Positions 20,376-64,000 of a DNA stretch of 64,000 nt are shown piece after piece (the stretch's first letter is position 1; each line of letters begins with the position of its first letter). A program made the position numbers and the translations under genes. This DNA comes from a virus. The notes under the pieces were generated by a model. The model had not been told where the DNA came from, ran no database searches, and saw only the letters and a list, made by a program, of their open reading frames with translations. Location: the UHGV virus genome UHGV-1550212, one strand, 5' to 3'.

Positions 20376-20933
20376 CTACGGTATGATGTTGAAATTGACT
20401 GCAAGCAACAATGATGTGACATCTTCGCCCAATGGAAATGAACCTGTAGTAAAACCAACTGTTTTTGTTTGTGTATATTGGCTGCTCAAATCGAAGTAGT
20501 ATTGTGATGGCGACAATTCTGGTGTAGCATGCGGCTCAGTTTGACCATTTCGAACAACCATCAATCGTACTGGACCATTGAATGTTGCTTTATGATTCGG
20601 CAATGCAGAACCGTTGTAGTTAAGCGACATGTATTGCATCGTAATTCGAATCTGCTCAGCATATGATTTGCTAAGGTCAAGTTGCTGAGTGCCTTGAACA
20701 CGTAGAATACTTGATTGTCCAGATGACTGCCAATTTGCATACACAGATTGCTCGTTGGTCGTTATGATGGCATTGCCATCAATATCGAGTAGTTCAACAG
20801 TCATCTGACCTGTCAAGCTGATTCGATTGCCAAGATTGTTGCCTACTACTGCAATGCTAACTGAAACGGGCTTCAAAGACCCCCCCTGCGCCACATTTTG
20901 TGAACGATAGTGGTCTTGTGTAACTGTTGACAT
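20376..20933 (-). CDS. hypothetical protein with 5' poly-G tract (paralog 1)
   Basis: Track start is a TTG; first ATG at 20933 gives MSTVTQDHYRSQNVAQGGS; a G7 run (coding strand) at 20880-20886 encodes the Gly-Gly. Confidence 0.5.
   Translation of the reverse strand: MSTVTQDHYRSQNVAQGGSLKPVSVSIAVVGNNLGNRISLTGQMTVELLDIDGNAIITTNEQSVYANWQSSGQSSILRVQGTQQLDLSKSYAEQIRITMQYMSLNYNGSALPNHKATFNGPVRLMVVRNGQTEPHATPELSPSQYYFDLSSQYTQTKTVGFTTGSFPLGEDVTSLLLAVNFNIIP
20880..20886 (-). repeat. homopolymeric G7 tract (coding strand) in 5' coding region
   Basis: C7 on plus strand; codons for Gly-Gly at residues 16-17 of 20376..20933. Confidence 0.8.
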
Positions 20934-20980
20934 ATCATAAAGTGTTTTGCGATGATGCAATCCACTTTATGAATGCATCA

Positions 20981-52878: not shown

Positions 52879-54474
52879 TCAAAGCTTGAATTTTTGCACT
52901 TTTGCATCTACTGGCATCTTTTCAGCGTCATAGATTCGTTTTCGAGCAGCAAAGTGTTGCATGTCATAATTGCAGTAGCAATAGCCTTTGCGAAGCTTGA
53001 CAAGCATATCACTGTGAATTGTAAGCTTATGTGCAATATCAATAATGATTGCTTTCTGCTTAAGTGGATGCTTACGCAACAGTCGCCCAATTGACTGCAA
53101 TGTTACGTTGTCAGATTTGCCAATCATCAAGAATGCAGCATAAAACCAAGCATGCACAGATACGCCTGTAGATAATGTACCAGTTGTTGCAATCATGATG
53201 TGTCTGTCAGGCTCTGCTTCCATCATTGCAAGCATGTCTTTGCGTTCATGCAAGGGTACATCACCTCTAATGATGTGAACAACCTTGTCAACACCAGACT
53301 GCTGTATGAATGTTTGACAAGCATCATAGATGTTCTGCACATGGTCTCGTCGTTTGCAAAGTACAAGAGCATTTTTGTCAAGCGAACAAATGATTTTTGC
53401 AATGAGCTTGTTAGCATCGACATAGTTCATGCAATGATGTTGTTCTGCTGGAAGCAGTCTTGCAGTGTTATCAAACACTTCAGGATGCTCTTCAAGATAC
53501 TGCACAAATGGCGCATCATATTCTGCTGAATGCTCAATGACTACTCGTTTGATTTCAAAGTCAGACACAATGTTCTTTTCAAGTGCTTGAGCTACGCCAA
53601 ATGTGCCCAATATTGGCCCAATGTATGATTCAATTGTCAAACGAGCTGCAGTATGCTCAAGTGGCAATGAACCAGACACTCCAAGACGATAATGAGCTTT
53701 TGTGCAATGACTGAAGATTTCACGAATTGATGCTGCAGGTGCACCATGAGCTTCATCAGTTACAATGAAGTCAAACTGTTCGAAAAAGTCTGCTGGCATA
53801 TTGACAAGACTTTGATATGTGCCGACAACCATATCTGCATCTTGCATCTTGTACTCATTGCGAACACCTGAATGGATTTTGTAGAGTTTGTAATTCTTGT
53901 TTGCTAAATCTGACTCATTTTGTTGATAGCTGACAACAATATCGTCAAACGCTTGTGACACGAGATGCACCGAGGGCACAATCATAAGTGTTTTGCCATT
54001 GATTCTCTTGCTGTCTTTTAAGAAGCGACTAATTACATAAACAAGAGCTGTTTTGCCATAAGAAGTCGCAAGGCGCAAACAACATTTCTTGAATTTGCAA
54101 GCAGTCAAAATGAATTTGAGCTGGTCATCACGCATGTCAAATGGCATATCAAGACATTCTGACCATTGCTCAAGCTCTTCAAGTGACACAATGCGGTCAA
54201 AGTTGTCAATGAGGCCCTCAATCTTGACTTCATATGGAATTGGCTTACGCAATTGTAGGTCCCAGATACGCTTCCATAAGCCAAATGGCAGGTATACGCC
54301 ATTGAACACATAGCAAATTTGCCCATTCCAATCTGTTTTGCGTCCTTTGCGCTTATTGACTGCTGCTGCAACAAAGTTTGGCACTTCTGCAGTAGCTTCA
54401 GCATACAATTGCTTGACTTCCAAATCATTTGCTTCGACAATCTGAAGCAAATCGCCTATGACTTTAAGTCTCAT
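52879..54474 (-). CDS. SF2 DEAH-box helicase (UvsW-like)
   Basis: Motif I LATSYGKTA, motif II IVTDEAHGA, motif VI QSIGRLLR; start trimmed to the ATG at 54474 downstream of the terminator hairpin at 54491-54528. Confidence 0.75.
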   Translation of the reverse strand: MRLKVIGDLLQIVEANDLEVKQLYAEATAEVPNFVAAAVNKRKGRKTDWNGQICYVFNGVYLPFGLWKRIWDLQLRKPIPYEVKIEGLIDNFDRIVSLEELEQWSECLDMPFDMRDDQLKFILTACKFKKCCLRLATSYGKTALVYVISRFLKDSKRINGKTLMIVPSVHLVSQAFDDIVVSYQQNESDLANKNYKLYKIHSGVRNEYKMQDADMVVGTYQSLVNMPADFFEQFDFIVTDEAHGAPAASIREIFSHCTKAHYRLGVSGSLPLEHTAARLTIESYIGPILGTFGVAQALEKNIVSDFEIKRVVIEHSAEYDAPFVQYLEEHPEVFDNTARLLPAEQHHCMNYVDANKLIAKIICSLDKNALVLCKRRDHVQNIYDACQTFIQQSGVDKVVHIIRGDVPLHERKDMLAMMEAEPDRHIMIATTGTLSTGVSVHAWFYAAFLMIGKSDNVTLQSIGRLLRKHPLKQKAIIIDIAHKLTIHSDMLVKLRKGYCYCNYDMQHFAARKRIYDAEKMPVDAKVQKFKL

Positions 54475-54490
54475 GACATGACTTGTTATG

Positions 54491-54528
54491 AAAAAGAGGC
54501 TCAGACAGACATTGTTTGTCTGAGCCTC
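54491..54528 (-). terminator. intrinsic terminator
   Basis: 11-bp stem GAGGCTCAGAC/GTCTGAGCCTC, U5 on the minus strand; downstream of 54554..55684. Confidence 0.6.
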
Positions 54529-54553
54529 GAGCATCTTTGATGCGTTTGTGCTA

Positions 54554-55684
54554 CTACTTGAGCCCGTTGATGAATGCTTCAGTTTCAGCATCCATCGTTG
54601 CTGCTGCAGGTGCTGCTGCCGGAGCTGCTGCAGGTGCAGGTTCTGGTGCAGGCGCTAAAGCTGCTGCAAACGGGTCAATGGCTGTCTGAGCTGCTGGTGC
54701 AGTAGCAGGCGCAGCTGCCTGAGCTGTTGCAGGTGCAGGCTGAGTAGTCTGTGCCTGCTGAGCTGCTGACGAATTGATGACAATGTCAGGCCAGATATCC
54801 GACACATCCTTGTAGTTAGCAAGGCGCATCTTAACCTGACGCTTGATGTCATCAGAAGCTTCGTGGTAGCCCCACTCCTTTTCGACATTCGGGTACTCCT
54901 TGAGCATGTCGACAATCTGCTGCATAATTTGCTGCTTGTATGCAGGGTCAGTGTCATACTTCGCCTGGTCAACAAGCGTGCCATCTGCAAGCAGCATCGA
55001 CGATACGTTGGGCGAAATCGTCGAAGTCTCGTAGTCACGCATTTCAACGCCATTGACGTCTTTCAGCGTAATCTTCAAGAGAATGTCGTGGCCCTTAACG
55101 GGATGGAACATGTCCATAGGCTGAGCACCCATCTGGATGTCTTCGTCGGTAGGCTTCATTGCAGACATGCAACGCTTGTAGATGGCTGCAGGGAGTCGAT
55201 ATGGGAGTACTTTCCCAACGTTCTCAGGGTGCACTGAATCAGCCTTGATTTGCACGAGGCAAGTGTACTGACTCTGCATGCTGAACTCTCGCTTTGCAAG
55301 CGCTTCCTGCTGAGCATCCTTGGTATTGATGAGTTCCCAGTAGAATGCCGAAATGGGACACCATCCATAGGGCTTCATCAAATTTTCAGGATTTTCAGGA
55401 TGCGGATTCGGCGAGCTCGGCGAATTGTAGCGGAAGCCCTGATTAGCGCCAGTGCCAAACCAGTAGTAACGGACGATTGAAATCGGCACCGCGGGGTCAT
55501 TCAAGTTCGGCAGAATTCGAATGACTGCTCGATAGATTCGGTCCTTACTTTCGGAAGGCTTAGGATTAAAAAACTCAGGTCCTGCAGAACGTTCCGGCTT
55601 AGCAAAGCTTGCTACATTGTCCGGCTGGACATCAAAGATTGACAGCGGCTGATTACCGGTCTGCCCATTTTCAATTTGTGACAT
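54554..55684 (-). CDS. hypothetical protein with Ala/Pro-rich low-complexity C-terminal region
   Basis: 376 aa; visibly GC-richer codon usage than neighbours; C-terminal (AP/AAP)n linker then a short conserved-looking tip; possible abundant DNA-binding protein. Confidence 0.5.
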   Translation of the reverse strand: MSQIENGQTGNQPLSIFDVQPDNVASFAKPERSAGPEFFNPKPSESKDRIYRAVIRILPNLNDPAVPISIVRYYWFGTGANQGFRYNSPSSPNPHPENPENLMKPYGWCPISAFYWELINTKDAQQEALAKREFSMQSQYTCLVQIKADSVHPENVGKVLPYRLPAAIYKRCMSAMKPTDEDIQMGAQPMDMFHPVKGHDILLKITLKDVNGVEMRDYETSTISPNVSSMLLADGTLVDQAKYDTDPAYKQQIMQQIVDMLKEYPNVEKEWGYHEASDDIKRQVKMRLANYKDVSDIWPDIVINSSAAQQAQTTQPAPATAQAAAPATAPAAQTAIDPFAAALAPAPEPAPAAAPAAAPAAATMDAETEAFINGLK

Positions 55685-55771
55685 CGCAATAAAATTTTAG
55701 AAAGTTTAACAAAAAGTTTGAAATGAACTCTTCAGAAAAGCTTCAGAAGTTTATTTGTTATTTGTATATGT

Positions 55772-55800
55772 ATTGTATAACATGCAAAGTACTTTTGCAC
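55772..55800 (-). promoter_or_regulatory. sigma70-like promoter (GTGCAA-N17-TACAAT)
   Basis: Upstream of 54554..55684 with ~87-nt leader. Confidence 0.5.
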
Positions 55801-56967
55801 TTATCTTGCATGACCACAGTCATCTGCAAGCAGTTTAGCATGACCGCAGTCATATACTGCAACATAACCGACGTCAATCATCTCTTGTTCATCTTGACCG
55901 ATATCTTCAATATGTTCTTTTGTCTTCAAATGACACCAGTGCTTATGAATGGTTGACTTGTCATCTGACAACTGCGGGTTGAGCGCGAAGTCAGCTGAGT
56001 CTACTTGTTCACCTGCAAGATGCTTTCTAATGGCGTCAATGACTTCGTTGTCATCCATCCATTCGAATATTGTAATGCAAGTGTAGCCATGCTTAAGAGC
56101 AAGTTGAGTTTTGTCGAAGTGGTAGAATTTGCCAACTGGCTTATTGTGTTTTGTGCGCCCAGTTAAATATGCAAAGCCATATGTTGCATTGTGTGACCAA
56201 AGAGGATTAACTTCAATCAAAAGTTTGCAGTATTCATTACAATAGTCAAGGTCATATGACCATCGCCCAAGATTGACATTATCAAGCCCGCAATCAATAC
56301 CAAGTTCTTGCAGCAATTTGTCGTGCCACCAATGGTTTGCTCGTGATTTTACATGACCTTGAGCATCACGGCATTTAGTAGTCATACAAAACCATGGCAC
56401 ACCATGTCGTTCCATATTGACTTCTTGAACGCGTTCAAGATTGCCGCTCTTATTGCCATAACGTTGCTGTTTTGTTTGCAATGCAGCATCAATATTGCCC
56501 CATGCATTGCCATATCGTTTTACAACAGTTTGTTTGCGTTTTTCAACATCACAGCACTTATTGCCATATTTACGCAATTTAGTGTCAAATGCTTTTTGTG
56601 TATTGCCTATGCCACGTTTGCCCCATTTGCGCTCTTTGCCTTGTTGACATCGTTCTTGGTCACCCCATGTGCTGCCATATCGTTCTAAATTTGTTTGTCT
56701 ACGTTTTTCAACATTGCCTGCTTTGCATCCATGTCGTGCTAAATTTGTTTGTTGTTGTTTAGCTACGCAATCTTTGTTACGTGCAGGAAATTCAACGCCT
56801 AATGAACGTAGACAGCCAATTCTACGATTATAATTACGTTTAATATTGCCGTGTGATGTTTTACAAGGCCCATATCTTACAAACTCAGTTGTTCTCAACA
56901 ACTCATCTCGCTCTTGCTCAAGCTCTGCAATGCGCTTCTCAAGAGCTTCACCAGTTAGTGGCGTCAT
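55801..56967 (-). CDS. tandem-repeat protein (RYG/KYG units) with C-terminal nuclease-like domain; paralog of 1777..2976
   Basis: Same architecture: LTGEALEKRIAELEQERDELL coiled coil, repeats (ARHGCKAG, ERYGSTWG, KYGNKCC, RYGNAWG, RYGNKSG), C-terminal LLIEVNP...H. Confidence 0.55.
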   Translation of the reverse strand: MTPLTGEALEKRIAELEQERDELLRTTEFVRYGPCKTSHGNIKRNYNRRIGCLRSLGVEFPARNKDCVAKQQQTNLARHGCKAGNVEKRRQTNLERYGSTWGDQERCQQGKERKWGKRGIGNTQKAFDTKLRKYGNKCCDVEKRKQTVVKRYGNAWGNIDAALQTKQQRYGNKSGNLERVQEVNMERHGVPWFCMTTKCRDAQGHVKSRANHWWHDKLLQELGIDCGLDNVNLGRWSYDLDYCNEYCKLLIEVNPLWSHNATYGFAYLTGRTKHNKPVGKFYHFDKTQLALKHGYTCITIFEWMDDNEVIDAIRKHLAGEQVDSADFALNPQLSDDKSTIHKHWCHLKTKEHIEDIGQDEQEMIDVGYVAVYDCGHAKLLADDCGHAR

Positions 56968-57719
56968 TTCACTTCAGGTTTTGCTTGCTTGGCCAACTCA
57001 GCTTCAGCATTGAACTCTTTGCCCTCAGCTTTCATTGTTTCAGCATAAGTCTTTTCATCAGTGTAACGTTCTACGCCATCACCAAGCAGTTTTGCAACTT
57101 CATCATCTGCTTCAAACAATGGCTGTGGATTGTCATCATTGTCATCTTTGAGTTGCTCAAATGTGCTGTTATGCTTTTCTGCAATTTTGATGAGGTCAAC
57201 GATTGAACGAGTTACGAGTTCACCATTGATGCCTGACTGTTGTTCAGATTGACCAGTGCCTTGTTGCAATTCTGCTTGAGTTGCTCGAACATTATTATTG
57301 AGTGATGCAAGTACATTGGGAAGAGTTCGACAATATGATATATATTGCTGAACCAACGACATTGCATCATTCTGCAGTTTGATGAGAAACGCAAACTCAC
57401 CCATGCCTCCGCCTTGTGCATCAATGCGCTCGAATACTGAATCAAGTGCATGCATTGCATAGAACACTTGTTTGCAAAGTAAATTGATGTTTGTCTTCTC
57501 CATCTCAATTGATGCATCGATAAATGGCGACTTAACATCTGCTGCTATGCACAATTTGCGAACTTCATCAACGTATTTTGAACACTTGTCAAGTGTCTTG
57601 TCAAGTTTGCTTCGGTCAAACTGCTTGTAAACTTCTAACGCATCGCTTACTTCTGCAGCATCCAATATTGCATTTGCTGCAGCCAATTCTGATTCTCTGC
57701 TCATCTCAAAATGGTCCAA
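56964..57719 (-). CDS. hypothetical acidic protein
   Basis: 251-aa ORF with ATGA overlap to the upstream gene. Confidence 0.45.
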   Translation of the reverse strand: MDHFEMSRESELAAANAILDAAEVSDALEVYKQFDRSKLDKTLDKCSKYVDEVRKLCIAADVKSPFIDASIEMEKTNINLLCKQVFYAMHALDSVFERIDAQGGGMGEFAFLIKLQNDAMSLVQQYISYCRTLPNVLASLNNNVRATQAELQQGTGQSEQQSGINGELVTRSIVDLIKIAEKHNSTFEQLKDDNDDNPQPLFEADDEVAKLLGDGVERYTDEKTYAETMKAEGKEFNAEAELAKQAKPEVK

Positions 57720-58315
57720 GCTTCAATAATTGCTGAAAAATCTTCAAATGACATCGTAGTATAGCCTGCGTCGCCCCAAGATACACCCCAGCTATTCTTG
57801 ATGATGAATGCGTCTTTTGTGTAGCCCACAATTGACACTGCATGACCACCAAAATTACCATCGCCTTTCCAGAAATGCTCAGCTTCAATGTCTTTTACGA
57901 GCATGCCAACAAATACAGGCCCATTTGCCACAACAGCAGATTTGACTTCATCAATTGTGTAACAACGTCTATATGCAGTTATTGGCAATTGCTCTGAGCC
58001 CTTTGACATCTTGATTGGCTGCGCTTTGAGCAACTTAAAGACGTCACGTGGAATCATGCCCTCTTGAGGCGCATTTGAACGACGCTCATACAATGCTTTG
58101 ATGTCAAGCTTGCCTTGCATAGACAGCACAGAAGACCACCAGTCAATCATTGTTGCTGCTGTGTAAGCTGCACACATTGATGTACTGCCTTGGTCTTCTA
58201 CTTGAAGTTGAGCCAACTTGTACACAAGTGGCAAATCAGTTTTTGCATCAAAACGCAAGTCTCTGTCATCTTTAGGTGACTGGATGTAGCCCAGTCCATA
58301 TGTTGTATGTTTCAT
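57701..58315 (-). CDS. papain-like (C1 family) cysteine peptidase
   Basis: Catalytic-triad contexts QGSTSMCAAY (Cys), GGHAVSIVGY (His), IKNSWGVSWGDAGY (Asn-Ser-Trp). Confidence 0.65.
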   Translation of the reverse strand: MKHTTYGLGYIQSPKDDRDLRFDAKTDLPLVYKLAQLQVEDQGSTSMCAAYTAATMIDWWSSVLSMQGKLDIKALYERRSNAPQEGMIPRDVFKLLKAQPIKMSKGSEQLPITAYRRCYTIDEVKSAVVANGPVFVGMLVKDIEAEHFWKGDGNFGGHAVSIVGYTKDAFIIKNSWGVSWGDAGYTTMSFEDFSAIIEAWTILR

Positions 58316-58330
58316 ATCAGATAATGTATC

Positions 58331-58603
58331 TCATTGCTCATGCCAGTGCCTTGTCAAGTCAAACATTGCTTCACGTTGCGCCTTTGTGCATTTCGTAGTA
58401 CCTTCCACAGCTGTAATATCGAATGTAGCATAATTGCTCAAGTTCTGCAACTGGGTCATATGCAAGACTAATTGGCATATTGTATGCGTCAACAACTCTG
58501 GTTTGAGCTTTTGCAACAATATGTCAGCAGTTTTGCTATGTTCAGCAAAGTCACAGTAGGTGACTTGGCCTGATGGGCTTAACCAGCAAGATTGCATTGT
58601 CAT
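58331..58603 (-). CDS. hypothetical small protein
   Basis: 90-aa ORF. Confidence 0.35.
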   Translation of the reverse strand: MTMQSCWLSPSGQVTYCDFAEHSKTADILLQKLKPELLTHTICQLVLHMTQLQNLSNYATFDITAVEGTTKCTKAQREAMFDLTRHWHEQ

Positions 58604-58974
58604 TCATTTGGTTGAGGCTCAATTCGCATAACTACACGCACAGAATCTCTGTAAGGATACACTGATGCGACAATCAAATACCAACGTTTGTTGTCAACTT
58701 TGCCATTTGACTTAATGTATGGCGCTGAAGTAGTAATGTATCGAGCATGTTTGAATGTCGTATCTACTCTTGCAACAAGACAGGTAGAATCAGTCACTTG
58801 AGCATGCCACACATCAATTTCTGGTAAATACGTGTTATGAGCATTGCATACACTATCAACAAATTCTCGTGGTTGCAAAGTGACAGTTGACACATATGTT
58901 GGCTTAACTGCAGCGCATGCAATGCATACAATTGCAATGAACAACAATGTAAATCGTTTCATATTCTTAGACAT
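58600..58974 (-). CDS. putative lipoprotein
   Basis: N-terminal MKRFTLLFIAIVCIACAA signal with lipobox-like Cys. Confidence 0.45.
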   Translation of the reverse strand: MSKNMKRFTLLFIAIVCIACAAVKPTYVSTVTLQPREFVDSVCNAHNTYLPEIDVWHAQVTDSTCLVARVDTTFKHARYITTSAPYIKSNGKVDNKRWYLIVASVYPYRDSVRVVMRIEPQPNE

Positions 58975-59236
58975 TTTGTAGTTCTACAATATCATATCGC
59001 TTATGCAATTCAGACCAGTCATGAACGTAGCCTGTCATAAAGACGTGCAACATGTGTGGCTTGTTGTCAGCATACTTGACTGCACCTGCAGCATCTTTGA
59101 TTTGCTTGGCTGTTAGCCAAACTTCTGCATTGTTGTTTGCATACACGCAACGATACACCGGTTCTGATAATTCAGTCACTGTGATTTTCTTGCCATTGCG
59201 AAGTATGCATCGTACTTGTTTGTCCATTGCTTGCAA
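58967..59236 (-). CDS. hypothetical small protein
   Basis: 89 aa; shares a C-terminal GYV..W.EL...Y pattern with 59551..59745. Confidence 0.4.
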   Translation of the reverse strand: MQAMDKQVRCILRNGKKITVTELSEPVYRCVYANNNAEVWLTAKQIKDAAGAVKYADNKPHMLHVFMTGYVHDWSELHKRYDIVELQNV

Positions 59237-59257
59237 TTTATGATATTGTTAAGATAT

Positions 59258-59554
59258 CTACAAAAAGCAATACACCATAAAACCCAAGAACATAATTATT
59301 GCAGGCTGCATGATGCAATACATAAAGAAGTGTGCAGCAATCGGCAATTCACTGAACTTGTTAAATGCGTCATGATTCTTGAACAATGTCAGTACAAATG
59401 ATATCCCAATTGCATGCTTAAGCGATAACGCAGTCAATGCGGGCCACACAGGCATCACAAACCACTCCCAGAAGTTCATAATAATGCAGCCATTCAGAAT
59501 GTAGCCTAACAGCATGAACATAATGCATGCAACAGTTGTCAGAAAGTTTTTCAT
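59258..59554 (-). CDS. membrane protein
   Basis: 98 aa, three hydrophobic helices. Confidence 0.4.
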   Translation of the reverse strand: MKNFLTTVACIMFMLLGYILNGCIIMNFWEWFVMPVWPALTALSLKHAIGISFVLTLFKNHDAFNKFSELPIAAHFFMYCIMQPAIIMFLGFMVYCFL

Positions 59555-59745
59555 ATACGCTCAAGTTTTATGATGTCAGTTCTTAATGATTTGTATACAG
59601 CAAATAATTCAGTCCAGCCTCGTACATAACCAACGCCGATTACATGCAATGCGTGTGCATCTGGTTTTGTATGGCAATGTCTTGCATGAGGCTGCTGTTC
59701 AAGTTCTGCTTGTGTAAGATAAACCTTTGATGTGTCATCATACAC
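59551..59745 (-). CDS. hypothetical small protein
   Basis: 64-aa ORF; track start is GTG, true start uncertain; weak paralog of 58967..59236. Confidence 0.3.
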   Translation of the reverse strand: MYDDTSKVYLTQAELEQQPHARHCHTKPDAHALHVIGVGYVRGWTELFAVYKSLRTDIIKLERI

Positions 59746-59972
59746 AAAGCATGGAAATACTGGCTATGCAAGTTCTGTTATGTCAATGTCTTGGCCATTA
59801 GATAGCCTTGCAAGATATAATGTGTTAGTTTGCATATTACATTGAGATATTAAGAATTCGCTTGACTACAGAATCGATATCATTGTTTACAGAATTGCGC
59901 AGTTACATGTGAACATTAGAATCAATGAACAAGTTATGAAACGTTGACGCAGCTTGAACAACTTGTTCGATT

Positions 59973-60263
59973 TTATGCTCGTACGAGTTTGATGACACAG
60001 TGCCGACAAGCTGCAAAAGTACTCAATATTGTTTCTACTTTGACACTGTACTGCACGTCAATGACACGATATGTGCCACACAATGCAGACATTTCTTGAC
60101 GACGTTCTGCAGGTACATTGACACTGTCTGTCAAATTGATGATTGCGCCAATCTGCATAGATGACATGACTGCAAATTGTTCGGGACCTACTTCTGCTTT
60201 GCGATATGCGACTTGTTTGTTGTTTTCGCAAATGCTGAATGCTACTATATAATCTGGTGTCAT
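59973..60263 (-). CDS. hypothetical small protein
   Basis: 96-aa ORF. Confidence 0.35.
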   Translation of the reverse strand: MTPDYIVAFSICENNKQVAYRKAEVGPEQFAVMSSMQIGAIINLTDSVNVPAERRQEMSALCGTYRVIDVQYSVKVETILSTFAACRHCVIKLVRA

Positions 60264-60275
60264 GATAGTCGCGTT

Positions 60276-60755
60276 TTATTCATTATCGTCATCATATCCT
60301 ATGCAATCTTCAAGACTTGCAAAGTCATCATCAAAGTCATCGAATTCAGGCTCTTTATTGCACCATTTGTAAGGTGGATTGTTGAGCAATTCAAGCTCTA
60401 TTGCATTTGACTGTGCAGAAATCGGAACATATTCGAATGCTTTGACTGACATGTTAAATTTGATACAATGCAGCCACGGAAACATATCAGTGTCCTCATG
60501 CACAATTGGCTGACGAACGTAGTCTTTCATTGCAATGAACTTGCTGCTGTCGTCCCAGTCTTCAATAGGTATTTCAAACTGCGATATGACAGTATGACAG
60601 CTTTCAAAGAAATTGCAGGATACACCTACAATAACATGAGAGTCTGTACGTTGGCGTTCTATTGCAAGAAAGTCATATTTCTTAGAAAGACGAACTTCTC
60701 CATGCTTCTCTAAGAAGATTTTAAGAAGCTCTTTGTTAATGTCGTTGATGTTCAT
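60276..60755 (-). CDS. hypothetical protein with strongly acidic C-terminus
   Basis: 159 aa ending EFDDFDDDFASLEDCIGYDDDNE. Confidence 0.45.
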   Translation of the reverse strand: MNINDINKELLKIFLEKHGEVRLSKKYDFLAIERQRTDSHVIVGVSCNFFESCHTVISQFEIPIEDWDDSSKFIAMKDYVRQPIVHEDTDMFPWLHCIKFNMSVKAFEYVPISAQSNAIELELLNNPPYKWCNKEPEFDDFDDDFASLEDCIGYDDDNE

Positions 60756-60777
60756 TGTTGTAGAGATTTTAAGTTGT

Positions 60778-61089
60778 TTAATGCCGAGTTTTTGCAGATA
60801 TAGCTACTTTAATTGTTGCTTTAATTTGTTCGATTGCATCTTGTGAGAACAATTCTGACACTGCTAAATAGTGATACCATGATGTTGGCGCTGCCTGCAT
60901 ATCAGTTCGTTTAATTGCGAACCGAAGTTCTTTTGGTGAACCAAGGCAACCCATATATTGGCAGCTTATTAGCTTAACTTGCACATTGTTAATGCTGCTA
61001 TGAATAGCAAGATGAGACAGATTTATTCTGTCATAGAATTTTAGATGCTTGAGTTGTTTTTCAATTGCTTTGAATGTGTTTGTGTTCAT
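60778..61089 (-). CDS. hypothetical protein
   Basis: 103-aa ORF with promoter at 61128-61156 and the shared initiation context. Confidence 0.4.
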   Translation of the reverse strand: MNTNTFKAIEKQLKHLKFYDRINLSHLAIHSSINNVQVKLISCQYMGCLGSPKELRFAIKRTDMQAAPTSWYHYLAVSELFSQDAIEQIKATIKVAISAKTRH

Positions 61090-61127
61090 TGTTGTAGAGG
61101 TTTTATATCATATATTGATATATGATA

Positions 61128-61156
61128 ATTATACTACAACAATCATAAATTTGCAC
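61128..61156 (-). promoter_or_regulatory. sigma70-like promoter (GTGCAA-N17-TATAAT)
   Basis: Consensus -10; upstream of 60778..61089, in the divergent region shared with the plus-strand genes. Confidence 0.5.
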
Positions 61157-61255
61157 TAATTTAATATATATAATATGTCAATAAATTTCACATACAAAAG
61201 TCTTTTCGCTTATGAAAACTACTCAACTCTGGTTTGAACGCCAGCAGTCAATCGC

Positions 61256-61262
61256 GGGGGGG
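61256..61262 (+). repeat. homopolymeric G7 tract separating upstream ATG from the main ORF
   Basis: ATG at 61212 and ORF 61280..61912 are in different frames across this tract. Confidence 0.8.
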
Positions 61263-61279
61263 CTCTTCGTGACACAGGC

Positions 61280-61912
61280 GTGCACATATATGTGCGTGAC
61301 AATGCTGATAACATTGTTAATGGGTTAGCTTGCTATTTACACTGTATTGAAACAGGGCGAACACTTCAAAGAGGCTTGTATACAAGCAATAATGGTGATG
61401 GCGTCACATTTTACATAACTGGTGATGACTATAAGCAATTAGTCGGTTCAACAAAAGATGCACAGTTTTATCTTATTGACACACCTGATGCTGCAAATAT
61501 GTCTTGGTTATCTGTAGCATTTACACTTAGATATGGCGCAGATATTGCTAACAACACACTAAATGTCAATATTGAAGCGTTCAAATCATGCGAAGTAACA
61601 ATAACTAACAGTGGCAATACATGCAGTTGCACCGCAATGCTTGAATGCAAGTTGCCAGCGGCAATTAAACTGTCAACAATTTGCAATACATCAGTAGCAT
61701 CTAATGTCAATGTGTCAGTTAATATAACAGCAAATAGCTTGGCTGCTAATTTTAGAGTTGGCAATAGCTTATCTGCAAAATTGACACATGTCGGCATATG
61801 GTCTATTGCTAATGCTTCTTATGTTTCACCAATATATGAGGGCGCTATAATTGTAAGAACACTGTCTGACATATTTCATGTGTTCATAACAGATAATACA
61901 ACACTTGCCTAA
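61280..61912 (+). CDS. hypothetical protein; likely phase-variable (5' ATG at 61212 is out of frame across a G7 tract)
   Basis: Track ORF starts at a GTG; an upstream ATG (61212) reads MKTTQLWFERQQSIAGG through the G7 run at 61256-61262 and stops at 61328; one extra G would fuse it to this ORF. Confidence 0.4.
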   Translation: MHIYVRDNADNIVNGLACYLHCIETGRTLQRGLYTSNNGDGVTFYITGDDYKQLVGSTKDAQFYLIDTPDAANMSWLSVAFTLRYGADIANNTLNVNIEAFKSCEVTITNSGNTCSCTAMLECKLPAAIKLSTICNTSVASNVNVSVNITANSLAANFRVGNSLSAKLTHVGIWSIANASYVSPIYEGAIIVRTLSDIFHVFITDNTTLA

Positions 61913-61937
61913 GTTTTTAACATAAACTCCTCAAATC

Positions 61938-62435
61938 ATGAACATTACAATGAACTGGGGGGGCTCTAAATTAGTCTACCTGCAGCTTGTTATTGGTGAT
62001 GCTTCATTGTACAACTTTGGCACTACTGAAACAATGGCGATACAAGGTACAATATCGCTTGACAATGTGGCAGTTAACATACCAACGTCAGGCTTTCCTA
62101 TCAAAATGATGGAATGCCGCGGTGGTGAAACTTACGCCATTGGTGCGTTAATGATGCCAAAAGCTTATGACTACTCAAACTTTGCTGCAAAAATTGGCTT
62201 TGGCTGTTATGCAGCAGATGGCCGTGGCACCGGCAATATTTACAACATCAATGCGTATGCCAACATCAACAGCACAAGCCCTGGTGGCAATCCTATACTG
62301 TTAACTTCTATGGCATGGCAGTATCCATTGGGTGTTGGTGATAAGTTTACATTGCCAATGTCAAACCCATCTGTCAAAGTTAACAATGGAGATATCGTGT
62401 CAATCATACTTAAGAATGCAAAGAAAGTCAGCTAA
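61938..62435 (+). CDS. hypothetical protein with 5' poly-G tract (in frame)
   Basis: MNITMNWGGS...; G7 run at 61957-61963 in codons 7-9; followed by a plus-strand terminator. Confidence 0.5.
   Translation: MNITMNWGGSKLVYLQLVIGDASLYNFGTTETMAIQGTISLDNVAVNIPTSGFPIKMMECRGGETYAIGALMMPKAYDYSNFAAKIGFGCYAADGRGTGNIYNINAYANINSTSPGGNPILLTSMAWQYPLGVGDKFTLPMSNPSVKVNNGDIVSIILKNAKKVS
61957..61963 (+). repeat. homopolymeric G7 tract in 5' coding region
   Basis: Codons 7-9 (W-G-G) of 61938..62435. Confidence 0.8.
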
Positions 62436-62461
62436 CTGACAAACGCATCACATATAAGCAA

Positions 62462-62495
62462 TGCACCACTGAGATTTCTCAGTGGTGCATTTTTA
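62462..62495 (+). terminator. intrinsic terminator
   Basis: 13-bp stem TGCACCACTGAGA/TCTCAGTGGTGCA with 2-nt loop, followed by TTTTT; downstream of 61938..62435. Confidence 0.65.
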
Positions 62496-62500
62496 TGTTA

Positions 62501-62552
62501 TTTGCAAGTGGAGTTGTCACCCACCTCAGCACAATTTGGCGACCTCATTGAT
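62501..62552. repeat. 52-bp direct repeat, copy 1
   Basis: TTTGCAAGTGGAGTTGTCACCCACCTCAGCACAATTTGGCGACCTCATTGAT; identical except one base to 62586-62637. Confidence 0.75.
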
Positions 62553-62585
62553 GTTAATAAACATCATTCAGTGGTTGATGACTTG

Positions 62586-62637
62586 TTTGCATGTGGAGTT
62601 GTCACCCACCTCAGCACAATTTGGCGACCTCATTGAT
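62586..62637. repeat. 52-bp direct repeat, copy 2
   Basis: TTTGCATGTGGAGTTGTCACCCACCTCAGCACAATTTGGCGACCTCATTGAT; period 85 bp; in the convergent intergenic region 62496-62737. Confidence 0.75.
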
Positions 62638-62737
62638 AGTGCGTTGATGGCGAATTTTACACGACATCTATATACTTTAATGTACCAACCTAAGCATACG
62701 ATGATCTATATGCAAAAGTAAGAATTTTAAGTATTTA

Positions 62738-62771
62738 TACAATAAAAGCGACCCAAATCATTAGGTCGCTT
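62738..62771 (-). terminator. intrinsic terminator
   Basis: 8-bp stem AAGCGACC/GGTCGCTT with 10-nt loop and U-rich tail on the minus strand; downstream of the BNR lipoprotein gene. Confidence 0.5.
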
Positions 62772-62797
62772 CTTATATATTCCACCATTAAAACTGG

Positions 62798-63799
62798 CTA
62801 TTTTGCTGGCACAGCAATTATTCCACTTGGAACAGTTGTTATAATGCCTCCATTTTCATCTTTAACTATTTCTGTGGGTGTCCATGTTTCACCATCTATT
62901 GATGTTGTTATCATATTAACATATTTGGAATAACTATTATTCCAAGAACGGCCGACAGCAATAAACATTTCACCATTATATATGACATCCATCCAATTAC
63001 CATTAACATCTGTGGTGAATTTTGTCCAAGTTTGTCCATCATTGGATGTAAAAATATGCCCGTTAGAACTACTACATACGAATTTACCATTGCCAAACGC
63101 CATTCCATATCCTATAAGCATACTCGACGGTACTGCATATTTTGACCAAGTTGTACCATCAGTAGACACTCCAATATATGTACTACCATTGCCCATTGTA
63201 ACAAACCTGCCATTGCCATACGCAATTGACAACAAACCGTGACTTGAATCAAACCATTTCGGCGTTGTCCAACTTGTCCCATTGGCGGAGGTTGATATAC
63301 GGCCACTACTACCAACCACTACGAATTTACTATTACCGTATGCAATATCAGCCCAATTATATGTAGCAGAGGAATCTACTTTATAAGTTGTCCAATTTGT
63401 ACCATCAGTGGATACTGCGATATAACTATATTGGCCACAGACAACAAATTTTCCATTCGCATATATAATTCCATTCCATGTATAAGAAGAACCTGCTATT
63501 TGTTTCGGCGTTGTCCAATTCACGCCATCGGTTGACGTTGTTACATATCCATTCGCACCAACAGCTACGTATTTTCCATTACCATATGCAATGGCATTCC
63601 AACCATTTGTACCAACTACTGCCATAATGTTTTCTTCGATTTTAATTGTTCTTAAATCTTCGGTCAACGGCGGAGTAGTCGGTTCTTCCGGCTTTTCAAT
63701 AGGTGGTTCTACCGGCTCATCAAATCCCCCCCCGTCATTTTTCTCGCAGGATGCACACATCCAAGCACATACCGCAATGCAAATCATCTTTTTAATCAT
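62798..63799 (-). CDS. BNR/Asp-box repeat (beta-propeller-like) lipoprotein with 5' poly-G tract
   Basis: Lipoprotein-type signal MIKKMICIAVCAWMCASC; six repeats each with S-x-D-G-x-x-W-T (STDGVNWT, STDGTNWT, VSTDGTTWS...); G8 run at 63726-63733 encodes NDGGGF. Confidence 0.6.
   Translation of the reverse strand: MIKKMICIAVCAWMCASCEKNDGGGFDEPVEPPIEKPEEPTTPPLTEDLRTIKIEENIMAVVGTNGWNAIAYGNGKYVAVGANGYVTTSTDGVNWTTPKQIAGSSYTWNGIIYANGKFVVCGQYSYIAVSTDGTNWTTYKVDSSATYNWADIAYGNSKFVVVGSSGRISTSANGTSWTTPKWFDSSHGLLSIAYGNGRFVTMGNGSTYIGVSTDGTTWSKYAVPSSMLIGYGMAFGNGKFVCSSSNGHIFTSNDGQTWTKFTTDVNGNWMDVIYNGEMFIAVGRSWNNSYSKYVNMITTSIDGETWTPTEIVKDENGGIITTVPSGIIAVPAK
63726..63733 (-). repeat. homopolymeric G8 tract (coding strand) in 5' coding region
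   Basis: C8 on plus strand; encodes GGG just after the lipoprotein signal peptide of 62798..63799. Confidence 0.8.
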
Positions 63800-64000
63800 A
63801 ACTGCGTTTTTTAAGGTTTGTATAAATCGACATTAAAAGTAGTCATTTCAGATGATATTGCAAAATCGGAATTTCAGCAATCATTTCGGTTGTACGGTCG
63901 TTTTTACAATCGTGCCCTTTGTTCCGACAATAATTACATCCACAGTTTTTTTCGTCTTGGCTGCATTCTGTGCCCAATACCAAAGTGTCGTTACATTCAT

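Follow-up and report, generated by a model that had tools for sequence, protein, structure and literature searches.

We contend that the run of eight guanines near the 5' end of a lipoprotein gene in this phage DNA probably acts as the switch of a contingency gene that travels as the passenger of an IS1595-family 'transporter IS' that is native to gut Alistipes. In the mechanism that we propose, slipped-strand mispairing during DNA replication would add or remove one base in the G run. With the flanking sequence present here, a run of 8 or 11 would join the signal peptide and lipobox to a propeller and give the full lipoprotein (ON), and at other lengths translation would stop after 25-29 codons (OFF). 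The gene would be off by default and turned on in rare cells, given that the commonest length, G9, leaves the gene OFF whatever the flank type and always lies one step from ON. The window, as the term is used below, is the whole stretch of 64,000 nucleotides that was analysed, and the element and its surroundings are laid out in it as follows.

62482..62662, plus strand: 5' part of an interrupted phage ORF, with a tandem 85-nt duplication encoding ..SPTSAQFGDLID..
62655..62662, no strand: target-site duplication, TTTTACAC on the plus and GTGTAAAA on the minus strand; its second copy lies beyond the window (L001 395-402)
62663..64000, minus strand: part within the window of the IS1595-family element, 2,572 bp in total, which ends at window-equivalent position 65234
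62663..62688, no strand: right terminal inverted repeat, GACATCTATATACTTTAATGTACCAA on the plus strand
62740..62769, minus strand: likely intrinsic terminator for the passenger gene, still within the element, GCGACC-TAATGATTTG-GGTCGC and then TTTTATTG
62798..63799, minus strand: passenger gene for a 333-aa predicted lipoprotein, from the ORF, its homologues and an AlphaFold2 model
63800..64000, minus strand: conserved spacer from the transposase to the passenger gene, 248 nt in total, 201 nt of them in the window

The element is an IS1595-family insertion sequence with a passenger gene unrelated to transposition. The same 26-nt inverted sequence, GACATCTATATACTT(C/T)AATGTACCAA, is found at both ends, with weaker complementarity out to ~55 nt, and in the phage a perfect 8-bp duplication, GTGTAAAA, stands on both sides; the IS1595 family makes target-site duplications of 8 bp. 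Wholly beyond the window (L001 669-1589) lies a gene for a 306-aa transposase that matches the profiles DDE_Tnp_IS1595 (PF12762; 7.9e-37, 127 bits, cut-off 27) and Zn_ribbon_IS1595 (PF12760; 1.2e-14, 54 bits, cut-off 25.4). The lipoprotein gene (L001 1838-2839) falls inside the element bounds (403-2974). The sequence-only reading had called this gene phage-encoded, which is only partly right, since the inverted ends and the 8-bp duplication place it inside an insertion sequence that entered the phage genome. IS1595-family elements with passenger genes are termed 'transporter IS', by the account of Siguier, Gagnevin and Chandler (2009) given in PMC3129680, and the present element resembles them in its transposase with an N-terminal Zn-ribbon and a DDE domain, its inverted repeats, its 8-bp duplication and the unrelated passenger inside its ends. 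What sets it apart is its passenger, which is predicted to be a surface lipoprotein and combines a hypermutable tract with an exchangeable body; no descriptions of lipoprotein-type cargo on IS1595-family elements were found in the literature. Literature searches likewise returned no papers on this element, which may already bear a name.

The terminator was read directly from the sequence; its loop of 10 is longer than the limit of 8 set in the pattern scan, which therefore missed it. No Bacteroidota-type promoter motif (TAnnTTTG) was found upstream of the lipoprotein gene, and a sigma-70 promoter scan stayed near background (31 found against 22.7 +/- 4.3 expected). The 248-nt spacer also holds a small Cys-rich ORF.

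Over 80 contigs from the human gut, and Alistipes timonensis as well, carry copies of the element, at many different sites, although the counts of loci do not equal independent events because the copies share ancestry. Perfect 8-bp duplications of their own, all different and AT-rich, flank 24 further loci, and in 80 other loci the homology breaks off at these two ends (L001 ~399-403 and ~2974-2984). A stretch of 2,574 bp is 100% identical in two unrelated flanks, those of the phage and of locus L002, and corresponds to the element plus two chance-matching bases. Most copies are on contigs dissimilar to this phage, among them contigs of 270-805 kb and the genome of A. timonensis. A genome scan with the family alignment recovered only Alistipes (A. 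timonensis JC136 and an Alistipes MAG), a yield of just two loci that reflects the narrowness of the derived peptide patterns. The transposase is intact in 69 loci (dN/dS 0.03), and one copy (L005) is without one blade of the passenger protein and has a truncated transposase. PHROGs and Pfam gave no match for the flanks of L002 apart from one weak primase-like match, and no tRNA genes were found.

The passenger protein begins with a signal peptide and a lipobox-like CASC site; a Gly3 tract and a Pro/Glu linker come next, and an Asp-box beta-propeller makes up the rest. These parts map to the gene in this way.

63746..63799, minus strand: signal region, codons 1-18, with the n-region MIKK, the core MICIAVCAWM and C-A-S-C
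63726..63733, minus strand: G8 homopolymer (C8 on the plus strand), codons 23-25 (Gly-Gly-Gly) of the lipoprotein gene
63656..63745, minus strand: post-Cys segment, codons 19-48, with E-K-N-D, the Gly tract and the linker FDEPVEPPIEKPEEPTTPPLTEDL
62801..63655, minus strand: predicted beta-propeller body, residues 49-333, six blades with S-x-[DN]-G-x-x-W; 24 strands modelled

A lipoprotein-type signal peptide had been claimed for this gene, and the N-terminus has the look of one, with the positively charged MIKK n-region, the hydrophobic core that follows it (mean hydropathy of residues 5-17, +2.17) and the lipobox-like CASC. The strict lipobox pattern of the PROSITE PS00013 type, [LVI][ASTVI][GAS]C, is narrowly missed, solely because of the Cys at -3, and matches once Cys is allowed there (M-C-A-S-C). 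The strict form is present in 45/120 homologues, which carry Cys at the equivalent position, followed by D/E-K-D/E. Cys18 is the likely lipidation site, at which the signal peptide would be cleaved before lipidation. The residues after it, E-K-N-D, resemble the Bacteroidota lipoprotein export signal, described as C-X-K-(D/E)2 or CS(D/E)2 after Cys+1 (PMC5080379, PMC6222051). The match is imperfect, as C-E-K-N-D has K at +3 and E at +2 with a single acidic residue at +4/+5 where the motif has two; relatives read C-D-K-E-E or C-E-K-D-N-D-D at this site. This acidic N-terminus would probably send the protein to the outer face of the outer membrane, where the Pro/Glu stalk would carry a Ycf48-like Asp-box propeller that may bind some ligand.

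The plus-strand letters at 63726-63733 are CCCCCCCC, which is G8 on the coding minus strand, and codons 22-25 of the ORF read GAC GGG GGG GGA (D-G-G-G), four residues past Cys18 of MIKKMICIAVCAWMCASC. The coordinates of the tract and its place 22 codons into the ORF, both claimed beforehand, are confirmed by the sequence itself, and it is indeed the longest homopolymer of the 64-kb window, the runner-up runs being 7 nt. A G8 run is by itself not significant, because base composition predicts ~0.29 G/C runs of at least 8 nt per 64 kb, and chance thus gives one in about a quarter of windows. As judged from sequence comparison, the non-randomness of the tract rests on its fixed codon position and on the exclusive length variation between copies. 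Over 80 independent copies, and a second subfamily too, have the tract at this same codon, and the 5' coding region has a homopolymer of at least 7-8 nt, as contingency genes require.

Slippage control, which had been offered as a possibility, is supported by tracts of G6, G7, G8, G9 and G11 in public assemblies, whose length sets the frame between signal peptide and propeller. Among 80 metagenome loci, G9 is found in 63, G8 in nine, G7 and G6 in three each and G11 in two. Copies were also compared in seven groups of at least 99.5% identity over 1.66 kb, and no homopolymer but the G tract changes within them: its length differs in three of the groups, and control A/T runs of 5-7 nt differ in 0/11. 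A G9 copy, L022, differs by one codon from the window's body. A point against the switch is that in all four of the few same-site locus pairs from different samples the tract length is equal. The lengths were taken from consensus assemblies, and given that homopolymer lengths are error-prone, the difference between G8 and G9 might be ascribed to errors of sequencing or assembly. We consider this extremely unlikely: G8 with identical flanks is found in four loci that represent seven contigs, G9 recurs in dozens of independent assemblies as well as in an isolate genome, and the A/T runs of the same elements are without such variation.

The window's flank, G(n)ATTTGATGAG, brings the signal peptide in frame with the propeller at n = 8 or 11. 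It is one of three flank types, and the sister flanks, with one extra or two fewer bases, are ON at 7 and 10. G9 is out of frame in all three, and in the second subfamily G9 is OFF and G10 is ON. Only 3/69 scorable copies are in frame, and each of the 66 OFF copies lies one step from ON. Such an arrangement recalls the poly-G contingency genes of Neisseria, for instance pilC, with its G run in the signal-peptide region, and the lipoprotein gene hpuA. The likeness to these genes and to those of C. jejuni extends to an early G run of 8-11 that toggles the frame, to lengths that cluster at G9/G10, to OFF alleles with intact ORFs and to surface products, which are predicted in the present case. 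The differences are that the gene is here an IS passenger with many copies and sites, that the host is a commensal gut Bacteroidales and that no allele type is ON at the modal length.

The prevalence of the OFF state could also be taken for decay, with most copies being pseudogenes broken at a fragile homopolymer whose length varies neutrally and switches nothing. This would agree with the 66/69 copies that are out of frame, with extra truncations in a few bodies (L008, L021, L031, L032, L064 and L068), with the lost blade and truncated transposase of L005, and with a body dN/dS of 0.42, which is much looser than that of the transposase. Random decay would, however, lead to both wrong frames and to more lesions, whereas every OFF copy is exactly one step away from ON, and 59/66 of them retain an ORF of 280 aa or longer after the tract. 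The body dN/dS is still below 1, and the tract is kept in place in front of bodies that are 29-50% identical and in the second subfamily. We regard decay as very improbable.

An unlikely alternative to the poly-G switch is that G9 is not silent, and that RNA polymerase slippage or ribosomal frameshifting yields a low, constant expression with no heritable on and off states. The dominance of G9, although out of frame, in three flank types and a second subfamily would fit such a process, as would the intact downstream ORFs and the phage's own leader genes, which are likewise one base out of frame, even where the tract is interrupted. Homopolymer slippage reportedly serves gene expression in IS elements. 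The flank types argue against it, given that type A needs one base fewer and types B and C one base more; one directional frameshift mechanism cannot serve all flank types, because opposite corrections are needed. In-frame variants also exist at the DNA level (G7, G8, G10 and G11), and most documented cases of efficient transcriptional slippage involve A/T runs. The dominance of G9 can moreover arise from mutational bias alone, as it does in C. jejuni, where G8 tracts gain and G10-G11 tracts lose bases and G9/G10 are the commonest lengths (PMC3401435).

The part of the protein that the tract would switch carries six S-x-[DN]-G-x-x-W motifs, at residues 89, 130, 171, 212, 252 and 300 (spacing ~41), each preceded by a YGNGKFV-like strand, in agreement with the six Asp-box-like repeats noted earlier. 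An AlphaFold2 model of the 333-aa protein (pLDDT 84.7, pTM 0.81) has 24 strands, with pLDDT below 50 for residues 1-26 and confidence still low (block means of at most 57) as far as about residue 40. The prediction is a beta-propeller fold, as the sequence-only reading had it, and the blade count is probably seven rather than the six given there. Six blades with Asp-boxes would be completed by a closure blade from N- and C-terminal strands, a count drawn from strand positions. The best match by fold is Ycf48 (E 1e-10, TM 0.60-0.65), which is also the best by sequence profile (1.8e-10), at only ~15% identity. Like Ycf48/HCF136, a photosystem II assembly lipoprotein, and like the Bacteroidota family DUF6242 / DUF6242_C, the protein has an Asp-box propeller of ~300 residues after a lipoprotein signal; unlike Ycf48/HCF136 it has no photosystem context, and the likeness is one of fold, not function. 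Pfam scores remain below cut-off for both BNR_2 (22.1 against 31.4) and DUF6242 (22.2 against 29), the latter being the best Pfam family among relatives, some of which pass its cut-off. The repeated Asp-boxes and the weak BNR_2 match are shared with sialidase-type BNR propellers. A sialidase was considered and rejected: the protein is without an F/Y-R-I-P motif, has only four arginines in 333 residues, and nothing suggests catalysis. The bodies of the copies form 11 clusters of ~47% identity behind a nearly identical 5' region, and this comparison indicates that the propeller body is exchanged among element copies.

In the source of the window, a large Bacteroidota phage, the element disrupts an ORF, and in the reconstructed empty site a single open frame spans the junction. 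Read from its assembled tract, the phage copy is ON, which is the rare state. Most simply, this copy would be a recent hitch-hiker whose state was inherited from the donor copy. It is unlikely that the gene is a phage accessory gene, whose lipoprotein alters the host surface, for example by superinfection exclusion or receptor masking, and is switched by the phage through the tract. The gene does lie on a phage contig and is ON there, and given that ON is rare in an unbiased sample (3/69), this state could reflect selection. Both phage-element junctions were recovered in a second sample (L003), so that the IS-bearing phage is present in at least two samples. Phages are known to encode lipoprotein exclusion factors, namely Llp of T5 and Cor of phi80 and N15, with which the gene shares its status as a lipoprotein gene in a phage genome. 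In contrast to these, it came on an IS with its own ends and duplication, breaking a phage ORF, and it is absent from the corresponding region of the closest relative, a phage of 175.6 kb that is 94% identical. The identical element in L002 is also G8 in an unrelated flank, consistent with a founder effect. When IMG/VR was scanned for exact matches to both tract flanks, none was found, and the upstream flank (5' sequence) alone was found on only one other contig, adjoining integrases. The lipoprotein gene had no PHROG match to any exclusion family. The exclusion function suggested by the sequence-only reading is thus without specific support, because the gene is an IS passenger and not a native phage gene, most copies are on contigs without similarity to this phage and the 94%-identical phage lacks the element in the corresponding region. 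Megablast of 60000-64000 against the phage collection gave no match, nor did PHROGs and Pfam for the neighbouring phage ORFs.

Phase variation in Bacteroidales has been described mainly via invertible promoters (review PMC11868660), whereas this locus points to a slippage-based switch in gut Bacteroidales. Since the switch is packaged with a transposase, a family of variable surface proteins could multiply, exchange bodies and cross into phages. Because G9, the usual state, is out of frame, gene callers and NCBI annotation mostly miss the signal peptide, and many homologues are given out-of-frame N-termini (e.g., MRYVLGCVHPARKMTGG.. and MRLCMCIMRSKCWGG..); as a result, most of the family carries the annotation of cytoplasmic hypothetical proteins. 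A look-up of protein clusters did not contain the exact 333-aa sequence, which a contig look-up did return. The IS inside a lytic-type jumbo phage, with its duplication intact, documents phage-mediated carriage of transposable elements, which to our knowledge is considered rare. A G9 copy is present in a cultured strain, A. timonensis DSM 25383, at ~110 kb on NZ_FNRI01000001, and this makes the system testable.

A wider scenario, which we advance only as speculation and consider rather unlikely as a whole, would have the IS spread an off-by-default, poly-G-switched surface propeller with interchangeable binding bodies among Alistipes, a Parabacteroides-like subfamily and phages. The phage would use its ON copy, for example, as a receptor mask or decoy, and together with the phage's own poly-G leader-body genes this would amount to a two-sided arms race between host element and phage by the same slippage mechanism.

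As a separate observation, the phage has G7 genes of its own, in which a shared leader is joined to variable bodies. In the assembly every one of them is out of frame by one base, even a gene whose tract is interrupted. The related phage has inverted leader copies; a switch by inversion between them was rejected after consideration, since both copies share the same promoter and leader and inversion would alter nothing. Campylobacter phage genes with hypermutable poly-G tracts (Sorensen et al. 2021, Cell Rep 35:109214), as they are cited in PMC10877375, resemble these G7 genes in having the tract at the 5' end. The likeness does not extend to the G8 tract, which belongs to the IS, and the G7 genes differ from the Campylobacter ones in their construction from a shared leader and variable bodies that are out of frame.

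At 63726-63733 the plus strand has a C8 run, a G8 tract on the minus strand, which exceeds every other homopolymer in the window, none of them longer than 7 nt. This tract lies 22 codons into a 333-aa open reading frame (62798..63799, minus strand) that opens with MIKKMICIAVCAWMCASCEKNDGGGFDEPVEPPIEKPEEPTTPP and is read as GAC GGG GGG GGA across the tract (codons 22-25). A motif search of this frame gave six S-x-[DN]-G-x-x-W motifs (residues 89, 130, 171, 212, 252 and 300), so that both the tract and the six Asp-box-like repeats described in the sequence-only reading are confirmed. Given that about 0.29 G/C runs of at least 8 nt are expected per window from composition, the G8 run by itself is unremarkable, and its significance stems from the comparison with other copies of the element carrying it. 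A/T runs of at least 8 nt number zero in the window versus about six expected from composition; the phage window appears to avoid long A/T homopolymers.

Seven public contigs encode the identical 333-aa protein, and all of them carry a gene for a 306-aa transposase on the same strand, upstream of the lipoprotein gene and separated from it by a 248-nt spacer. The transposase matches the profiles DDE_Tnp_IS1595 (7.9e-37) and Zn_ribbon_IS1595 (1.2e-14), and it was invisible at first because its gene lies just past window position 64000. Locus L001, the end of the 176,073-bp contig containing the window (L001 x = window 65637 - x), and locus L002 have 2,574 bp in common at 100% identity and share neither side beyond. 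Inverted repeats, GACATCTATATACTT(C/T)AATGTACCAA, are found at both ends of the shared unit, the insertion in the phage has the 8 bp GTGTAAAA perfectly duplicated on either side (window 62655-62662, with the second copy outside the window), and L003, from a different sample, holds both phage junctions. When the element and one of the two 8-bp duplicates are excised in silico, one continuous open frame results (..SPTSAQFGDLIDSALMANFT before the junction, QVTASGTINVVANTTYW.. after it); hence the insertion disrupted an ORF of the phage. The gene earlier called phage-encoded does sit in a phage contig, but the inverted ends, duplication and disrupted ORF around it identify it as cargo of an insertion sequence. 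The element shows all IS1595 family features tested and, as an insertion sequence with a lipoprotein gene as cargo, fits the 'transporter IS' idea; no paper on it was found in the literature searched.

In the conserved transposase-lipoprotein spacer, a small Cys-rich ORF (..CSQDEKNCGCNYCRNKGHDC..; window 63843-63983, minus strand; 46 aa, called as 39 aa) is readable in the Alistipes timonensis copy too. Just outside the window (L001 99-407, minus strand), the outward-facing IS end supplies an in-frame ATG, with MSFT instead of MANFT, so that gene calling still picks up 102 aa left over from the interrupted phage ORF. The cargo variant at L005 (P0002) lacks 48 residues, roughly a blade, and comes with a truncated transposase; P0032 is a 401-aa protein in which an IS1595 zinc ribbon is fused to the propeller.

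The DNA around the element is that of a large phage. Its PHROG matches include DNA polymerase, helicases and an SbcC-like nuclease, and a 1,113-aa protein shares 23-31% identity with proteins of Bacteroidota jumbo phages and Sphingomonas phage PAU. An IMG/VR contig of 175,564 bp is about 94% identical across window 53188-62498 and has no element at the corresponding region.

In a genome scan, relatives of the element were found in Alistipes only, namely in A. timonensis JC136, where a transposase gene precedes the G9 copy, and in an Alistipes MAG. A metagenome contig scan, with the 26 nt ending in the tract start as query, revealed at least 80 loci, mostly labelled human gut. Homology to L001 ends at the element's two ends in all listed loci; 24 of these have perfect 8-bp AT-rich duplications of their own and 69 an intact transposase (dN/dS 0.03), which marks the element as active and abundant. 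The flanks of L008-L087 (about 0.4 Mb), presumably largely Alistipes DNA, contain 14 more G/C runs of at least 7 nt, eight of them exactly 9 nt, which hints at further slippage-prone loci in these genomes.

Among the 80 loci listed of the at least 80 that exist, the tract is G9 in 63, G8 in nine, G7 in three, G6 in three and G11 in two. In-frame (ON) lengths differ between copies because three flank types exist.

Flank types 3' of the tract and their ON lengths
Type A (that of the window): G(n)ATTTGATGAG; ON at 8 and 11
Type B: G(n)TATTTGA..; ON at 7 and 10
Type C: G(n)TTGATGAG; ON at 7 and 10

Three of the 69 listed loci with enough downstream sequence are ON (L019 G11, L035 G11, L070 G7) and 66 are out of frame (OFF). 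All 66 listed OFF copies are exactly one step off an ON length. Decay of the cargo gene is a rival explanation for them, yet 59 of the 66 still have an ORF of 280 aa or more behind the tract; the dN/dS of the body, the propeller part downstream of the tract, is 0.42. Another rival is expression of the gene through polymerase or ribosome slippage. The body of L022 (G9) is one codon different from that of the window, and L005 has the window's flanks but G9, the gene caller there having taken a TTG start in an alternative frame. Such alternative-frame N-termini are frequent among the best 120 homologues (e.g., MRYVLGCVHPARKMTGG.., MRLCMCIMRSKCWGG..), and a single 90% cluster contains both wrong frames of one body. 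In a second subfamily (MRKQIL..CASCDPETGGG), with one member labelled Parabacteroides and an IS1595-type transposase divergently oriented, one locus that is very widespread has G9 and is OFF, and copies elsewhere have G10 and are ON. That the variation is an artefact was weighed in a control comparison of elements grouped at ≥99.5% identity over 1.66 kb: the G tract varies in length within three of the seven groups, and 11 A/T runs of 5-7 nt show no length difference in any of them. With lengths from G6 to G11 in other copies, a toggled frame and constant control runs, the proposed slippage control of the tract is supported.

Poly-G tracts of C. jejuni most often stand at G9/G10; at G8 they mostly gain a base, and at G10-G11 they mostly lose one (PMC3401435). 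The element's tract may, by analogy, have its mutational resting point at G9 too; since G9 is the OFF state throughout the element family, we infer that resting point and OFF state coincide. G8 is shared by the phage copy and the identical copy at L002, and a founder effect is thus favoured over selection in the phage; a phage exclusion gene is a further rival explanation.

Residues 1-18 of the product have a basic start followed by a hydrophobic core, as expected of the claimed lipoprotein-type signal peptide, but with Cys at -3 they fall short of the strict PROSITE-type lipobox, which 45 of the 120 best homologues match, with the Cys at the equal relative position. The E-K-N-D after the Cys is similar to the Bacteroidota export signal C-X-K-(D/E)2 or CS(D/E)2 without matching it, and tract-less relatives are closer (C-D-K-E-E). 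The AlphaFold2 model (pLDDT 84.7, pTM 0.81, 24 beta strands) has pLDDT below 50 for residues 1-26 and low confidence up to about residue 40. It predicts a propeller, as did the earlier proposal of six blades, but strands 49-63 and 326-331, outside the six Asp-box repeats, probably close a seventh. Top matches by fold and by profile are to Ycf48, a seven-bladed lipoprotein propeller, the fold being Ycf48/DUF6242-like; Pfam BNR_2 and DUF6242 scores for the 333-aa protein are under the cut-offs. A sialidase was rejected, as the 333-aa sequence has no sialidase motif. A distant relative joins this propeller type to a phage tail-fibre N-domain (Mtd_N), which fits a predicted role as binding module. 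Bodies at the listed loci form 11 clusters at 90% identity (median pairwise identity 47%) and follow a near-identical transposase and 5' region, typically reaching about residue 99.

The best-supported account is that of a probable surface lipoprotein whose gene would be toggled by slipped-strand mispairing of the G run, would be OFF by default and would be disseminated with the whole unit via IS1595 transposition; the initial interpretation is, as a whole, partly supported. Such a switch would work like those of Neisseria pilC and hpuA and the C. jejuni poly-G genes, and no paper on slippage-based switching in Alistipes was found in the literature searched.

All four G/C runs of at least 7 nt in the window, G8 included, are poly-G on the sense strand and at most about 25 codons from a start, and the phage therefore seems to own contingency genes.

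Phage genes with 7-nt runs
61212-61912: G7 at 61256-61262
61938-62435: G7 at 61957-61963
20376-20960, minus strand: C7 at 20880-20886

A leader, MKTTQLWFERQQSIAGG, starts with the ATG at 61212. At G7 it is out of frame with a 210-aa body and at G8 it would join this body; the other two tracts are in frame. In the roughly 94% relative (IMGVR_UViG_3300045988_149023; L089, L090, L091), the leader family (MKTTQLWFERQQSIAGG; one copy MKTPQFWFERQQGLAGG) precedes four genes with differing bodies, with G7 in three and an interrupted GGGTGGG in one. All four leaders are out of frame, three needing +1 base and one -1 or +2, so these genes are either mostly OFF or expressed via programmed frameshifting or polymerase slippage. 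The 165-aa protein of 61938-62435 has two relatives among 5.8 billion proteins, both 133-aa internal-Met calls, which is what out-of-frame tracts in them would produce.

In the 5' part of the IS-interrupted ORF, a 55-nt sequence (..VELSPTSAQFGDLID..) occurs twice (62498-62552 and 62583-62637; 96% identical), its copies being read in different frames because their 85-nt spacing is not divisible by three; its homologue in the related phage (..TGDKPTSAQFGDLVDS..) is on the opposite strand, and the region was therefore rearranged between both phages. A perfect 15-bp inverted repeat at 62460-62491 (AATGCACCACTGAGA / TCTCAGTGGTGCATT), T-rich on either side, looks like a bidirectional terminator closing two plus-strand genes. 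A 28-nt sequence (60744-60771 and 61078-61105; 89% identical) spans the start codons of two neighbouring small ORFs together with their upstream regions, and may be their shared 5' control region.

Small ORFs behind the 28-nt repeat
60276..60755, minus strand
60778..61089, minus strand

Window positions ~59228-60276 form about 1 kb without a called gene, where the related phage is about 770 bases longer (at ~59950).
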